Source: Alloascoidea hylecoeti
Taxonomy: Eukaryota
Direction of reading: 5' to 3'
DNA: 29,472 nt
NCBI GenBank assembly: GCA_001600815.1
Contig: BCKZ01000002.1
Location: 951,725-981,196, forward strand
Shown here: piece by piece, positions 12,059 through 29,472 of the stretch
How the letters are laid out: every line of letters starts with the position of its first letter
Position numbering within the stretch: the stretch's first letter is position 1
The notes under the pieces: model-generated
What the model saw: the letters and a program-made list of their open reading frames with translations, nothing else
What the model was told of the DNA's origin: nothing
Database searches by the model: none
Translations under genes and position numbers: made by a program

Positions 12059-13630
12059 ATGACTAGTCTACATTTACAAGCCTCCGGACCCCGTTCTTCT
12101 CAAACAAGAGCACATAATACTTCTTCTTCGAATAGCTCAAAATTCTCAAACTCAAACTCCATTTCTCCTAGTAATGATGATTTTGCTACTTTTGAAAAGA
12201 AGCCGGATACATTCCCCAGAGCAACCCAAGAAAGAGCATCATCTGCCAAACTTCGGATCGAGAACTTTTATAAAATGAGTGTTCAACATGCTGTTGAACG
12301 AAATCAAAGACGTGTTGACTTAGAATCAAAATTAGCTCATGAACGAGGATCCGAAGAAAAAAAAAATAGACAATTACAATCACTAGGTAAAAAAGAATCA
12401 GTTTTTCTAAGATTAAGAAGGACAAGATTAGCACTCGAAGATTTTCAAACTGTTAAAGTTATTGGTAAAGGTGCTTTTGGTGAAGTTAGATTGGTTCAAA
12501 AGAAAGATACTGGTAAGATCTATGCGATGAAAACATTATTAAAGTCAGAAATGTATAAAAAAGATCAATTGGCTCATGTCAAAGCCGAAAGAGATGTTTT
12601 AGCTGGTAGTGATTCTCCTTGGGTTGTGTCTCTATATTATTCTTTTCAAGATTCTCAATATTTGTATCTAATTATGGAGTTTCTACCTGGTGGTGATTTA
12701 ATGACAATGCTTATTAGATGGCAAATTTTTACTGAAGATATTACAAGATTTTACATGGCTGAATGTGTTTTAGCAATCGAAGCAATACATAAACTTGGTT
12801 TCATCCATAGAGATATTAAACCCGATAATATTTTAATCGATATAAGAGGTCATATTAAACTATCTGATTTCGGTTTATCAACAGGCTTTCATAAAACTCA
12901 TGATTCAGCATATTATAAAAAAATAATGGCAAATGATAATTCCAACTCTTCATCAAATCCACAAAGAAATTCAGTTGTTGGTGATTCTATTGCACTTACC
13001 TTATCAAATCGTGAGCAGATGCAAACTTGGAGAAAATCAAGAAGATTAATGGCTTACTCAACTGTCGGTACACCAGATTATATTGCACCAGAAATATTCA
13101 TCCACCAAGGTTATGGTCAAGAATGTGATTGGTGGTCACTTGGTGCTATCATGTTTGAGTGTTTAGTTGGTTGGCCACCATTTTGCTCAGAAACTCCAAG
13201 AGAAACATACCGTAAAATCTTAAATTGGCAAGAAACTTTACAAATTCCGGATGATGTTCATTTATCACCTGAATCAGAAGATTTAATAAGAAGATTCTTA
13301 ACCTCTTCTGAGCATCGTATTGGTACCCGTGGAGGAGCAAACGAAATCAAATCCCATCCTTTTTTTAAAGGTGTTAATTGGGATTTAATACGTGAAGTGG
13401 ATGCACCATTTATACCAAAGTTAAGTTCAATTACTGATACAAGATTTTTCCCTACTGATGAATTGGAGAATGTTCCTGATTCTCCTGCAATGATGAATGC
13501 ACAAAGACAACAACAACAGCAGCAAGGTGGAGGCAATGGAAGTACTGATGGTAAAAATAAGGATGATATGCCATTTATTGGTTATACTTACTCAAGATTT
13601 GATTATCTCACGAGAAAAAATGCTATTTAG
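12059..13630 (+). CDS. CBK1: NDR/LATS-family Ser/Thr kinase Cbk1 (copy A, canonical)
   Basis: Mob-binding N-terminal region (ENFYK...AVERNQRR...[16 protein letters not shown]), [39 protein letters not shown] and the hydrophobic motif FIGYTYSRF. Confidence 0.97.
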
Positions 13631-14234: not shown

Positions 14235-15719
14235 ATGGATCCCTCACAAATGCAAGTCGACGAAAATCATGATACTCCTATGTTACCAGAAGACTATGTA
14301 GCCTTCGACAGAGAACCAGATTTATTTCCTACCAACACTCAAGCCCATGCTCAATTTTTTAAAGATAGACTAGAGAATTTTTATAAGACTAGTGTTCAAC
14401 ACGCTATCGAAAGAAACCAAAGATTAGTTGAATTAGAAAAGAAACTAGCAAACGAAAGAGGATCCGAGGAGAAAAAAAACCGACAGCTACAATCGCTAGG
14501 TAAAAAAGAATCAATTTTTTTAAGATTAAGAAGAACACGATTATCTTTGGATGATTTTCAAACTGTTAAAGTTATTGGTAAAGGTGGATTTGGTGAAGTT
14601 AGATTGGTACAAAAGAAAGATACTGGACACGTATATGCGATGAAAACATTATTGAAATCAGAAATGTATAGAAGAGATGAACTAGCTCATGTCAAGGCTG
14701 AACGGGATTTAATGGCTAGAAGTGATTCAAAATGGGTTGTCTCGTTATATTACTCATTTCAAGATGCTCAAAATTTATATCTAATTATGGAGTTTCTACC
14801 TGGTGGTGATTTAATGTCAATGTTAATACGATTTCAAGTATTCTCAGAAGATATGACAAGATTTTACATGGCTGAATGTATTCTAGCTATAGAAGCAATT
14901 CATAAACTTGGTTTCATCCATAGAGATATTAAACCTGATAATATTTTAATTGATAGTAAAGGACATATTAAATTAACCGATTTTGGTTTATCAACAGGTT
15001 ATCATAAAACAACAAATGATCCTAACTATTACAAAAAGATTATGGATAATGGACCAATGCCAAAAGCAGTTGAAAGGAATTCGTTTATCGCTGGAGGGTC
15101 TATAGCACTTACATTATCCAATCGTGATAAGATTCAAACATGGAGGAAATCTAGAAGATTAAAAGCTTATTCAACGGTTGGGACGTCTGACTACATTGCA
15201 CCAGAGATATTAACACAACAAGGATATTCGCAAGAGTGTGATTGGTGGTCTCTTGGTGCAATTATGTATGAATGTCTAGTAGGTTGGGCTCCATTTTGCT
15301 CTGAAACGGCTAGAGAAACATATATAAAGATTCTTAACTTCGAACAATCACTTTATTTCCCCGACGAAATTCATTTATCGCCTGAAGCGGAGAATTTGAT
15401 TAGAAGGTTATTAACATGGTCAGACCAACGTATTGGGTCAAGAGGAGGAGCGGATGAAATCAAGAATCATGCTTTTTTCAGGGGAGTCGATTGGAATACG
15501 ATTAGTGAAGTTCAAACTCCATTTGTGCCCAATCTCAGTTCGATAACAGACACAAAGTTCTTCCCAACCGACGAACTAGCCAACTTGCCTGATAACCCAG
15601 CGATGGTGAATGCAAGAAACCAGCAGCAAAACGGTGGCAGACCGGAGAAAGATGATATGCCATTCATCGGCTACACGTATTCTAGGTTTGATGATCTTAC
15701 AAGACAGAGTGCTATATAG
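14235..15719 (+). CDS. CBK1: Second Cbk1-like NDR kinase (copy B, tandem paralog, diverged)
   Basis: Same architecture as copy A with a different N-terminal ~45 aa. Carries [31 protein letters not shown] and FIGYTYSRF in an intact 494-aa ORF. Confidence 0.93.
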
Positions 15720-25584: not shown

Positions 25585-25613
25585 CCGGGTAACGGGACTG
25601 TGTGAAAAATATT
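25585..25613. promoter_or_regulatory. Reb1 site (CCGGGTAA, 25585-25592) and RRPE-like TGAAAAATATT (25603-25613) in the 146-bp PRP24/TMA23 bidirectional promoter
   Basis: Exact Reb1 consensus. The RRPE has one mismatch and lies upstream of a ribosome-biogenesis gene. Confidence 0.6.
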
Positions 25614-25676: not shown

Positions 25677-26474
25677 ATGAATTCACATGGCTACTTAACT
25701 TCATACGGCTGGATACCTGGGGAGGCACTTAAACATGGAGGATTAAAGAAGCCTATACTAGTCACACACAAGAAGGATAAAAAAGGCCTTGGACATGAAG
25801 TCATTAACAATGATGTGTGGTGGGAAAGAGTGTTTGATGGACAATTAAAAGGTTTGGATATTTCCATAGATGATGAAGAGGATGCCAAAAACAAAGGAAC
25901 TGAAAGTGGTATAACGTTTAAACAGTCTACAGTTGTTCCAAGCGCTATTAAAAAGAACGAATCTCCCCTGTATCGAAGGTTTGTTAAAGGTGAAGGTTTA
26001 CAGGGTACATTAAGCAATATAGAGGAATCCAAGAAAATTAACAATGATGTTGTGATAATAAAAACAGTTGATGTCAATACTAGGAAGGAACATAAATTAA
26101 AAAAGAAAGGGTGTAAAGTGAATGTAACTACTACGATGGAAGCAAAGTCCAACGATTCAACAAAAGAGCTGTTAAAGTCGTCAAAAAGAAAGAAGAACCA
26201 TACAGAAGGAGATAAAACGAAAAAAAAAAATAAAGCCAAGCAAGTCAAAAAAGCCAAAGAAGCCAAAGAAGATGAGAAGAAATTAATTATCAACGCTATA
26301 ATTTCATTTAAAAGGAAGCGCACAGACGATGGTATTGAACAACTCGAAAGAAAAGACAAAAAGTTTAAGGAAAAAAAAGGAAGGAAAGATAAAAAAGATA
26401 AAACAAATAAAAAGAAGAGAAAGGAGATAAAAATAATAAAGACAAAAAAAACTAAAAAGATAGAAAAGCTGTAA
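25677..26474 (+). CDS. TMA23: Tma23, nucleolar G-patch-like ribosome-biogenesis protein with Lys-rich tail
   Basis: First ATG at 25677: MNSHGYLTSYGWIPGEALKHGGLKKPILVTHKKDKKGLG...WWERVFDGQLKGLD...SPLYRRFVKGEGLQGT, followed by a poly-Lys C-terminus. Confidence 0.92.
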   Translation: MNSHGYLTSYGWIPGEALKHGGLKKPILVTHKKDKKGLGHEVINNDVWWERVFDGQLKGLDISIDDEEDAKNKGTESGITFKQSTVVPSAIKKNESPLYRRFVKGEGLQGTLSNIEESKKINNDVVIIKTVDVNTRKEHKLKKKGCKVNVTTTMEAKSNDSTKELLKSSKRKKNHTEGDKTKKKNKAKQVKKAKEAKEDEKKLIINAIISFKRKRTDDGIEQLERKDKKFKEKKGRKDKKDKTNKKKRKEIKIIKTKKTKKIEKL

Positions 26475-26576
26475 AAATGATAATTTTAATATTAAGTTAG
26501 AATAATAGGAATATTAGTAATTCACTTAAATGAACTCTCATTCCTTTAACCCACACTTATTTATCCATCTTTAGTA

Positions 26577-27404
26577 CAGTACTTTGCGTTATCAACCATA
26601 TGTTAACCTATAATTATATTCGCCCAGATGTTAAATAATTCGGCCGCTATTTGCATTAGATATTCGACCATATAATGCATAAAATATTAGACCACTTATT
26701 GAATTAAATATTCGACTTCTGTTTCAACTTATTATTCAACTATTTCACGTATAAATATTCGGCTGGTTAATTAGCACTTTAATAAATTATAGGGCCACAT
26801 TTTGAATTAAATATTCGATCACACCCTGAATAAATCTTCAATCATGCCGACTAAAATATCGGCCACCTTCACTAACATGGCACCAGGTATAGGCCTATAT
26901 CGTAAATATTTTTATATCTTGGATATTTCATTAGCATATCAATGAATTGTAAAATTTAAATATAGTTCAAATAGTGGAAATTTAAGATACCGGTATAGTA
27001 CTGTTCGAGAATTTTTGGTCCACTTTATGCAACTTTAGGGAAAACAACGCCGGTTCATCCCTGGAAATAGCACCAGTAACAGAGTTACTTACTGCAGGCA
27101 AACTGTGAACTGACCGAAAATCATTGTGAGGTGGCCGATTATTTTCGTCGGCATGATTGAAGATTTATTCAGGGTGTGATCGAATATTTAATTCAAAATG
27201 TGGCCCTATAATTTATTAAAGTGCTAATTAACCAGCCGAATATTTATACGTGAAATAGTTGAATAATAAGTTGAAACAGAAGTCGAATATTTAATTCAAC
27301 AAGTGGTCTAATATTTTATGCATTATATGGTCGAATATCTAATGCAAATAGCGGCCGAATTATTTAACATCTGGGCGAATATAATTATAGGTTAGCATAT
27401 ACTG
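26577..27404. mobile_element. Non-autonomous Tc1/mariner-type DNA element (MITE) with ~271-bp terminal inverted repeats and TA target-site duplication
   Basis: Arm 26598-26868 matches the reverse complement of 27129-27400 with 3 substitutions and 1 indel. Ends are TA|CAGTA (26575-26581) and TACTG|TA (27400-27406). The 260-bp spacer has no transposase ORF. Confidence 0.82.
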
Positions 27405-28284
27405 TAAGTTATATGACTTTAATTATTATTGAGCATCTTTCTTATTTATCCGTTTTCATATAAAGAGAACTATTATTGTCTCTCATTTACAAATCTATAT
27501 CCTATGGCTCTTATATATATAATATAATCTTAAATACCCGTACGTACCTCTAAGGATATTATATTTATTTTTTCTTGAACTAAATAACAACCTCAGAGCC
27601 TATAGCCTATTATTAACTTATAAGTTATATAACTTTTTTAGCCTTCATCGTATGACTTATGCATATGAACGGTTATACTGTATTTGAAATTATGTTAATT
27701 TCAATATTGACAAACATCTTTAAAGATGCCACTTTTATGTAACCGGAGTGTTTGCTTATGGTGGTCATGGAAATCTTGTATCTATATAAATGGTACTCTT
27801 GAATCTTAGTCATACCTAATCAGTTATTCCCTTGAGTTCTTTTAACGTTAATTTAATTCAAGTTAATGGAAAATGAAATGAAAAGGGATTAATTTCCAAT
27901 TATTTTACATAAATCAGATATTGGTACAATTATATAATTCAAACTATGTTTAATAAAGCAAATCTATCTATAGAACAGGATCAGAAATCAAATAAAATAG
28001 ATAAATAAAACAATAATATACAGGTGTATTATTGCTCAACATGAAGAAGAAAATATCGCAACATCAAGTATGTATTATAAATTACNTTCAGAGTGTTTTA
28101 AATAATTCAAATTTATTATATAGTCCGTTACTTAATAAGGCATTAAGTATATAACCAATGAGTTTTAACTCGAGAGAAAAGAAAATGTTCTTACATGTGG
28201 TGAACATAACCCCAAAATTTTGACTCTAAACAATATAAGTTCTAACAACAATATTTTTATATGCATTAATCAATGAGCAATCTC

Positions 28285-29472
28285 TTAAAGTGATAGACAT
28301 ATATAAATGCCAACCAAAGTAATAAATAGATTCAATGAAGATATTTTTGTGTTAGATGAAGCAGAACCAAACTCAACATTCGAGAGAACAAGAGAGGGAG
28401 TAATTAAAGGATTGGAAGACGATTCCAAAGGTAAAACTTGGGTGGCGAGCAAAACCAATGATTCTGTAGTTAAAAATGGTTCAGAAGTTGATGTAGTTTT
28501 AAATTTTATGGTACTGGTCATGGTAGAAGTAGGTTCTGAAAGTGGGACTGGTGTGGGTAGCTCGCTTGATGTTGATGTAGAGACCAATCGTTTATTAATA
28601 GGCAGTAAAGAAGTCGAAGGTGTAGTATCACGACTGGTAAGCGTAGAAGTAGAAGTGGTAAATCCAGAAGATGGTGTTGAAGGTGCTAAGGAATCAGTAG
28701 AAGTGAGTTTAGTAGAAGTAGTATATTCTTGGGATAGTACTAAACTCGATAGTATTGAAAGCGGTACAAAATCAGTACAAGTAGTAAGTGTAGTAGTAGT
28801 GGTGGTGTATTCTGGAGATGGTGCTAAAGTTGGCATATAGTCAATGGAAGTAGTAAGTGTAGAAATAGCCCATTCTAGAGATGTTTCTGAAGAATCGGTA
28901 CAAGTAGTAAGTGCAGTAGTAAAAGTAGTGAATTCTAGAGATGGTTCTAATAATGGTATAGAATCAGTGAAGATGGTAACTGTAGACGTAGTGTATCCTG
29001 GAGATGGTTCTGAAGATGGTAAAGAATCAGTACACGTAGTAGAAGTGACATATTCTGGAGATGGTACTGAGCTTGAAAAGGTGATTGCTGGAACTTCCGA
29101 AGGTAGATCACTCGGAAAAGTAAAATTAGAATAGGGTGAAGTTGGAATTGGTAATATAACAGGTAGTACTGAGCTTGAAAAGGTAATTGACGGAGGCGCT
29201 GAACTAAATAATGAACTTAATGGTAGCGTTGCATTGGGCATTGAGCTTAACGGCAGCGTTAAACTAGACAGTGAACTTAATGATAGCTCTGAACTTTGAA
29301 TTGCGCTACTAGAAACGTTTGTTAACACTGGAAGCTCACAGTCTTCAAGACAGTATTTCGGCGAAGTATAAGTTGTGTAAACAACATCACAAACTTGTTC
29401 TCCATAACGACCTGTACGCCACGCACTAACACAGTGACCAACTTCTACCACAACTGGTGCAACACATGTCTT
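28285..29472 (-). CDS. GPI-anchored Ser/Thr/Pro-rich cell-wall protein, adhesin/flocculin-like (partial; 5' end beyond the right edge)
   Basis: Open frame from base 29472 (KTCVAPVVVEVGHCVSAW...). A Cys-containing segment is followed by an S/T/P-rich stalk with repeats and a C-terminal GSASSN plus hydrophobic tail LNLFITLVGIYICLSL. Confidence 0.8.
   Translation of the reverse strand, partial: KTCVAPVVVEVGHCVSAWRTGRYGEQVCDVVYTTYTSPKYCLEDCELPVLTNVSSSAIQSSELSLSSLSSLTLPLSSMPNATLPLSSLFSSAPPSITFSSSVLPVILPIPTSPYSNFTFPSDLPSEVPAITFSSSVPSPEYVTSTTCTDSLPSSEPSPGYTTSTVTIFTDSIPLLEPSLEFTTFTTALTTCTDSSETSLEWAISTLTTSIDYMPTLAPSPEYTTTTTTLTTCTDFVPLSILSSLVLSQEYTTSTKLTSTDSLAPSTPSSGFTTSTSTLTSRDTTPSTSLLPINKRLVSTSTSSELPTPVPLSEPTSTMTSTIKFKTTSTSEPFLTTESLVLLATQVLPLESSSNPLITPSLVLSNVEFGSASSNTKISSLNLFITLVGIYICLSL
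28630..29065 (-). repeat. Degenerate coding tandem repeats of about 18-30 aa (PSPEYTTST[T/L]TTCTDS[L/I]P) in the adhesin stalk
   Basis: PSPEYVTSTTCTDSLP, PSPGYTTSTVTIFTDSIP, PSLEFTTFTTALTTCTDS, TSLEWAISTLTTSIDYMP, PSPEYTTTTTTLTTCTDFVP, LSQEYTTSTKLTSTDSL, PSSGFTTSTSTLTSRD. Confidence 0.75.

Follow-up and report, generated by a model that had tools for sequence, protein, structure and literature searches.

An 828-bp element with two long, almost identical inverted arms lies between convergent genes, and it raises the question of whether such well-matched ends mark a transposon that moved recently. The stretch of DNA analyzed as a whole, referred to here as the window, comprises 29,472 nucleotides (C2:951725-981196 of a 24.8-Mb, 136-contig assembly). 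Its initial annotation described a young, recently mobile or homogenized MITE with pogo/Fot1-like ends and a partner transposase elsewhere in the genome. Remeasurement by alignment confirmed the foldback structure: 26598-26868 and 27129-27400 are inverted copies, 98.5% identical over 272 alignment columns, that enclose a 260-bp core and differ by three substitutions (26603/27395, 26698/27300, and 26852/27146) and one 1-nt indel near 26858/27140. Between its flanking TAs the element runs from CAGT at 26577 to the ACTG that ends at 27404, and the letters TA-CAGT...ACTG-TA were confirmed at both ends (Table 1). It contains no open reading frame (ORF) of at least 100 aa and has no Rfam match at an E value of 0.1. 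The periodicity of the arm sequence revealed subrepeats of approximately 24 bp, a point absent from the earlier description, as is the 17-nt stretch between the left CAGTA and the matched arm.

Table 1. Features of the element and of its two neighbors, in positions of the window
Feature	Position	Strand	Remarks
TMA23-like neighbor, 265-aa lysine-rich protein with an N-terminal G-patch-like stretch	25677..26474	+	PF01585 score 19.6 bits, below cut-off (22)
Left TA target-site duplication	26575..26576	.	TA also outside 22/30 family termini examined
Left terminal inverted repeat (TIR), 292 bp	26577..26868	+	About 7 subrepeats, 24-bp period
CAGT terminus of left end	26577-26580		
17 nt of the outermost subrepeat, behind CAGTA	26582..26598	+	Left arm only
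248-bp tract, probably homogenized	26604..26851	+	Partner 27147-27394; one assembly mismatch (26698/27300), absent from second strain
260-bp core, probable decayed and internally deleted Dici-type DD34E transposase pieces	26869..27128	-	
Core segment like 'ILGAIS'	~27110-27015	-	Protein order kept
Core segment, 'HFLxF'-like	~26976-26908	-	Protein order kept
Core segment, C-terminal 'CH'	~26900-26869	-	Protein order kept
Right TIR, 276 bp	27129..27404	-	CAGTA kept, next 17 nt missing
ACTG terminus of right end	27401-27404		
Right TA target-site duplication	27405..27406	.	
Repeat ORF rich in Ser, Thr, and Pro, with only its composition adhesin-like	28285..29241	-	No Pfam family

The ends of the element recur elsewhere in the genome. 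A shared 26-bp terminus had at least 49 matches at three or fewer mismatches, compared with none for the reversed pattern used as a control (counts from genome searches are lower bounds), and TA stood outside 22 of the first 30 family termini examined. At least 216 subrepeat units were found in 56 arms, most commonly spaced by 23-24 or 47 nt. Two-ended copies were about 170 to 1629 bp long, and some, for example L034 (988 bp), are complete from TA to TA. They form a genuine transposon family that is dispersed and heterogeneous, unlike the uniform copies of a MITE burst; its terminus pattern had no match in the metagenome and viral contigs. Among the genome matches listed, the best were 69-82% identical to the element and none was a near-identical second copy, and the collected family arms were at best 75-85% identical to its own. 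The anticipated dispersed, TA-flanked relatives thus exist, but none is near-identical. The term MITE likewise fits in part: size, lack of a 100-aa ORF, TIRs, and target-site duplication agree with it, but the element is single copy by read depth and its relatives are 69-85% alike and 170-1629 bp long.

TA on both sides and TIRs common to dispersed copies uphold the classification as a non-autonomous IS630-Tc1-mariner derivative with TA duplication. The pogo/Fot1-like affiliation did not hold up. Profile searches found at least 22 DDE_1 and at least 29 DDE_3 matches in the genome; no family terminus or array lay within 1.5 kb of the 15 DDE_1 matches (of 22) that were examined, and the signal pointed instead to DD34E transposases of the Dici type. 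Six open frames of 306-1007 aa with a DDE_1 domain (L017-L021 and L030) may be pogo elements or CENP-B-like domesticates. A profile built from the host DDE_3 proteins retrieved among its relatives a 473-aa Diutina catenulata transposase and a 1155-aa Ogataea protein, which by length and species are Dici2 and Tc1-OP1 (PMC13469147, PMC9977792).

The core was originally called non-coding, which is correct as far as open frames are concerned, but it probably holds decayed transposase sequence. A profile of 47 outside relatives was used to score the cores, with frameshifts permitted and 200 shuffles for each core. The L034 core reached 32.3 bits (0/200 shuffles as high), the core of the element 19.1 bits on the minus strand (3/200), and the C11 core (L004) 19.5 bits (4/200), whereas the C5 core (L008), homologous to that of the element, scored no better than shuffles (14.2 bits, 87/200). 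Read in a single frame, the element core reached only 2.6 bits, a score equaled by about 7 in 1000 shuffles, and it matched no Pfam family. At the DNA level it aligned collinearly with the cores of the C5 and C11 copies (0/200 shuffles each), and the C5 core in turn overlaps that of L034; three other cores were not significant and one was borderline (3/200). The KKRK motif, which in Dici lies within the catalytic domain, was not readable in the element core; a lysine run occupies the equivalent place in the C11 copy, and the motif is present in a second Dici-type family of the host, where DD34E spacing was also seen. The catalytic residues fall outside the element core. Taken together, these alignments suggest that the core is probably transposase debris.

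An intact element for comparison came from the 80 metagenome loci of the Dici alignment, of which the two most similar, L200 and L205 (incomplete), were examined. L200 (L200:218-1847, on a metagenome contig) is a 1630-bp Dici-type element with TA-CACTA ends and imperfect arms that have a period of 23 bp, as in the second host family; its left arm holds five 23-bp subrepeats and its right arm one unit fewer. The terminal 26-mer of the family and the L200 terminus were not significantly alike (1050/20000 shuffles). The family is Dici-like on sequence grounds, and its membership in Dici is probable but not proven. Given the paired HTH domain of Dici-type proteins, the subrepeats are probably former transposase binding sites.

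We compared the family with published systems. Dici transposons are DD34E ITm elements of D. catenulata, other yeasts, and Mucorales, and a 1053-bp Dici1 MITE has been published; of the 24 TIRs listed, 3 start with CAGTA, and the TIRs have an arm identity of 0.78-1.0 and are 8-187 bp long (PMC13469147). Shared with Dici are the TA duplication, the CAGT-type start, the long and often imperfect TIRs, and the occurrence of non-autonomous derivatives in yeast (PMC13469147), and the host transposases, which show DD34E spacing and the KKRK motif, share 28-44% identity with the Dici2-type protein over fragments. In contrast, the arms found here measure 272-383 bp (272-292 bp in the element and 379 bp in the copy on C31), beyond the published range, and the family looks dead, whereas Dici is expanding (PMC13469147). 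The main text of that paper makes no mention of 23-24-bp subrepeats or arm homogenization. Tc1-OP1 of Ogataea parapolymorpha and Tc1-MP1 of Mucor piriformis belong to the clade retrieved by the host proteins and also use TA sites, but they are intact and autonomous with TIRs of 141-169 bp (PMC9977792), whereas the element is a coding-dead singleton with longer arms.

No transposase able to move the element was found in the assembly, contrary to the partner predicted initially, and no autonomous copy with the same TIRs was found. Among 26 matches there was no intact catalytic DD34E ORF; the only four whole ORFs all have G for the first catalytic D. These four Dici-like ORFs of 421-434 aa (P0001-P0004, at C3:326575, C3:349246, C3:351687, and C1:1577043) also lack TIRs and were rejected as partners. 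A word search found no relatives of similar length outside the genome, and they are probably domesticated. In three open frames of 157-242 aa (L149 at C20:486790, L150 at C10:438012, and L153 at C21:277540), the HTH half is all that is left of a Dici-like transposase; these might be domesticated DNA-binding proteins. Family subrepeats occurred near only 2 of 29 DDE_3 loci, on C13 and C27, and neither qualified as the autonomous partner, the array immediately preceding a broken transposase that itself lies within the TIRs of the second family.

This second Dici-type family has TIRs with a 23-bp period and a broken DD34E transposase (C13:697470-699940, corresponding to L095:3472-5942; C27, L093:1700-3810; and C17, L075). 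Two copies carry the first-family subrepeat array just before the start codon. In three copies, an inverted duplicate of approximately 150-190 bp of the transposase 3' end directly follows the gene; the arms within a copy are 96 and 93% alike, and the duplicates are 89% alike to each other.

We then compared the locus with contigs from four public runs. X1 and X2 may themselves be the source of the assembled DNA; X4, from another sample and study, is the only independent run; X5 does not cover the element. In three of the four runs, the arm formed a collapsed contig at about twice the single-copy depth, and the core was at single-copy depth. The tract at 26604-26851 had a depth of 20.6 in X1 (flank, 9.7; core, 11.7), 95 in X2 (flank, 62; core, 50), and 18.7 in X4 (flank, 8.9; core, 5.6); contig depth is a rough measure, compatible with two arms and one core per genome. 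The collapsed arm contigs at about double depth exclude an assembly artifact, and the depths of arm and core indicate that no hidden copies of the element exist. In all three runs that cover the site, the element was present and no joint crossed it. Joints at 27043 that might have indicated an inversion of the core were not retained as evidence, as their sides are only 31 nt long and fit the C11 relative.

Over about 2800 bases of flank and core, the X4 strain differs from the window at 15, a divergence of approximately 0.5%. It shares the differences between the arms that lie at the edges of the tract, namely the 17-nt indel, 26603, 26852, and the 1-nt indel. It lacks the difference at 26698 and has four arm-specific differences of its own at 26660-26697; four such changes in 248 bp are no fewer than the flanks predict. 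The second strain carries the element, and no empty TA site was found. X4 also has a 20-nt insertion at 25591, which lies upstream of the TMA23-like gene, between the two divergent genes.

The element is thus inserted at a TA, is one member of a family characterized by a conserved 26-bp terminus and subrepeats of 23-24 bp, is single copy, and is carried by both strains. Its description as young and recently mobile does not agree with the lack of a near-identical copy, the damaged termini, the presence in the second strain, and the failure to find an empty site. L034 provides the clearest comparison: its termini deviate from the consensus by one or two mismatches each, yet its arms are only 70% alike, which indicates that imperfect arms are the normal state of this family. 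The element is the reverse, with matched arms and damage at both termini (deletions of 3 and 17 nt, the left end departing from the family 26-mer by the 3-nt deletion and two substitutions). The alternative term used initially, homogenized, agrees well with a near-perfect tract of 248 bp in which strain-shared differences occur only at the edges. In simulations, the probability that four strain-shared differences leave such a 248-of-292 gap was ~0.003, a value based on only four events and on edges picked after seeing the data.

Arms with much higher identity to one another than to any other collected arm were found in three of nine long two-armed copies; the other six showed no homogenization. 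In the element, own-arm identity was 98.5% compared with 85% for the best outside arm, and the longest exact runs were 153 and 21 nt. The values for the C31 copy were 98.7% over 379 bp compared with 86% (runs of 280 and 29), although both arms carry an N at the same place and the assembly may have mixed their reads. For the C7 copy they were 91% over 135 bp compared with 83% (runs of 68 and 27). A short C7 copy had 98% over 63 bp compared with 92%. The agreement between the arms of the three matched-arm copies includes private departures from the subrepeat motif. The C31 copy (C31:166861-168489; L172:1062-2690) lacks CAGT at one end, and its core fillers are 7-11% diverged from their nearest assembled relatives, nearer sources possibly being unassembled; the filler matches C13:451518-451808, interrupted by a 367-bp insert. 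This insert was considered as an LTR and rejected, as it is a copia reverse-transcriptase fragment.

We therefore favor, with a probability of roughly 70%, the reading that the element is an old relic, Dici-like and non-autonomous, and that its arms were homogenized in place by gene conversion or a template switch. A Dici-like (DD34E, IS630-Tc1-mariner) transposon derivative would have inserted at a TA long ago, and internal deletion and decay would then have removed its coding capacity. Later, at about the time of the strain split (~0.5% divergence), one arm would have overwritten the other at the same locus, and a perfect tract of 248 bp would have resulted, flanked on each side by older differences. 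Replication template switching and intrachromatid conversion of one inverted arm by the other both fit and are not separable, and arm and subrepeat comparisons gave no assignment of the donor arm or of 5' versus 3' TIR type. Matched ends, then, do not show recent transposition of this element. It is probably immobile, given the damaged outer subrepeats and the lack of an intact catalytic partner among those found, and most likely a passenger that does nothing for the host.

Could the element nevertheless have transposed recently, from a lineage whose arms were already matched? Cut-and-paste movement would have kept its copy number at one, and the partner would have been lost or left unassembled. 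The 98.5% arm identity and the intact TA and CAGTA at both ends would agree with this, some Dici TIRs are 97-100% alike (PMC13469147), and homomorphic maize Mutator elements arise and can found clades (PMC10401008). Still, the reads indicate two copies of the arm and one of the core, every covering run carries the element with no joint across it, and its outer subrepeat is damaged at both ends. Moreover, three singletons with private matched arms would require three active lineages, and none of the 26 matches is an intact catalytic DD34E ORF. We regard this scenario as unlikely.

The matched arms might also have been kept for use, if read-through from the convergent neighbors produced a hairpin that fed Dicer/Argonaute siRNAs against Dici-type elements or tuned the 3' ends of the neighboring genes. 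The upstream gene, which we take to be TMA23-like, has its stop codon 102 bp before the element, and the Ser/Thr/Pro-rich ORF, convergent with it, has its stop codon 880 bp after the element. As RNA, the element has a predicted folding energy of -509 kcal/mol (z = -33.5, 20 shuffles), so that read-through, if any, would yield a long hairpin. By its single-RNase III Dicer-like genes and gene content, the host is indeed of the budding-yeast type, although five proteins of the window gave no named close relatives. It has an Argonaute ORF of 983 aa at C6:146302. Among at least eight RNase III matches, three ORFs were read (C1:2116959, C19:20847, and C19:264612); each has one RNase III domain followed by what appear by eye to be dsRNA-binding domains, and the signature looks intact in two and is altered in C19:20847. 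One RNase III domain with dsRNA-binding domains is the layout of budding-yeast Dicer and Rnt1. C19:264612 is apparently a shortened duplicate of C1:2116959.

On this basis the hairpin is a possible source of siRNAs, and the inverted transposase 3'-end duplicates in three second-family copies and the lack of a catalytically intact partner among those found would suit such a use. However, transcription would have to extend more than 650 nt beyond the upstream stop codon, arms only 70-85% like other copies would make poor siRNA guides, and the four X4 arm-specific differences show the arms drifting apart no more slowly than the flanks, so that a function of the hairpin for the host is not indicated. 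We consider maintenance for use quite improbable. Equally improbable, in our estimate, is a broader version in which dead Dici-type transposons repeatedly become long perfect hairpins, fed by arm-to-arm conversion, whose siRNAs silenced and extinguished the active elements. By analogy, such a process would cover both the matched arms of the first family and the transposase 3'-end duplicates of the second, and it could be likened to 'Mu killer', the name for a comparable silencing route.

A further scenario makes the right arm a new inverted duplicate of the left, created by break repair in place of the prior sequence, such that the present unit never transposed as such. In its favor, matched tracts end short of the termini here (by 17 nt) and in the C31 copy (by 4 nt), and the copy on C7 combines a matched inner tract with the lack of a right terminus. 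But the right end retains CAGTA-TA-type letters and an inner subrepeat of its own, collinear with the C11 arm-core junction at 75-82%, and an original right TIR therefore existed, which makes the scenario very doubtful. Finally, the inverted arms around an AT-rich core recall the inverted-repeat centromeres that occur in some yeasts, but a centromere is scarcely credible for a 0.83-kb structure in a 1.8-kb gap between convergent genes, with a TA duplication, transposase traces, a GC content of 29-33% like that of other intergenic DNA of the window, and an arm family scattered in several copies per contig.

In-place homogenization, the reading that we favor, has precedents in other systems. In maize Mutator, conversion of heteromorph to homomorph TIRs has been described, gene conversion was proposed, and the similarity of paired TIRs was stated to be no measure of age (PMC10401008). 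There, as here, the two TIRs of one element are closer to each other than to those of other elements, but Mutator belongs to another superfamily (9-bp TSD, MURA), and conversion occurred there with active lineages rather than in apparently immobile relics (PMC10401008). Template switching turns imperfect inverted-repeat arms perfect in Saccharomyces cerevisiae, in promoter inverted repeats, as opposed to transposon TIRs of ~250 bp with a 260-bp spacer (PMC13100816).

Long arms with internal repeats are also features of Foldback elements and of the IR-DR Tc1 elements (Sleeping Beauty). Foldback elements are grouped with Mutator or P, their TSDs being longer, and IR-DR elements carry two or three repeats per arm and not a regular 23-24-bp array. 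We found no paper on TIR homogenization in fungal Tc1-type elements in the literature searched, with subscription papers mostly outside it, and the main text of PMC4479816 mentions no MITEs.

MITEs of the Dici type have thus already been published for yeast, and TIR conversion for maize Mutator; new, as far as the literature was searched, are arms longer than in any listed Dici, the 23-24-bp subrepeat array, and the repeated homogenization in place. DNA transposons are scarce in budding yeasts (PMC13469147), and the present genome adds a further lineage with a sizeable load of the Dici type. The subrepeat arrays occur in two host families and in one intact outside element (L200), and we found no description of them for Dici. 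With three singletons whose arms appear to have been matched in place, the family is a clear case in which near-identical TIRs mislead on age. These copies could also serve, as naturally occurring loci, to measure how inverted repeats of 130-380 bp convert one another and to ask whether hairpins feed budding-yeast RNAi.

Some observations concern other parts of the window. A segment of approximately 108 bp (28065-28172), single in the assembly, was represented by read contigs at about 12-20 times the nuclear depth and is probably a mitochondrial insertion. Another segment (28215-28365) matched a contig of 3-4-fold greater depth with many differences. The tandem kinase genes at 12059-13630 and 14235-15719, presumably CBK1-like, lie 2113 bp apart and share 75-84% DNA identity over two 300-bp blocks.
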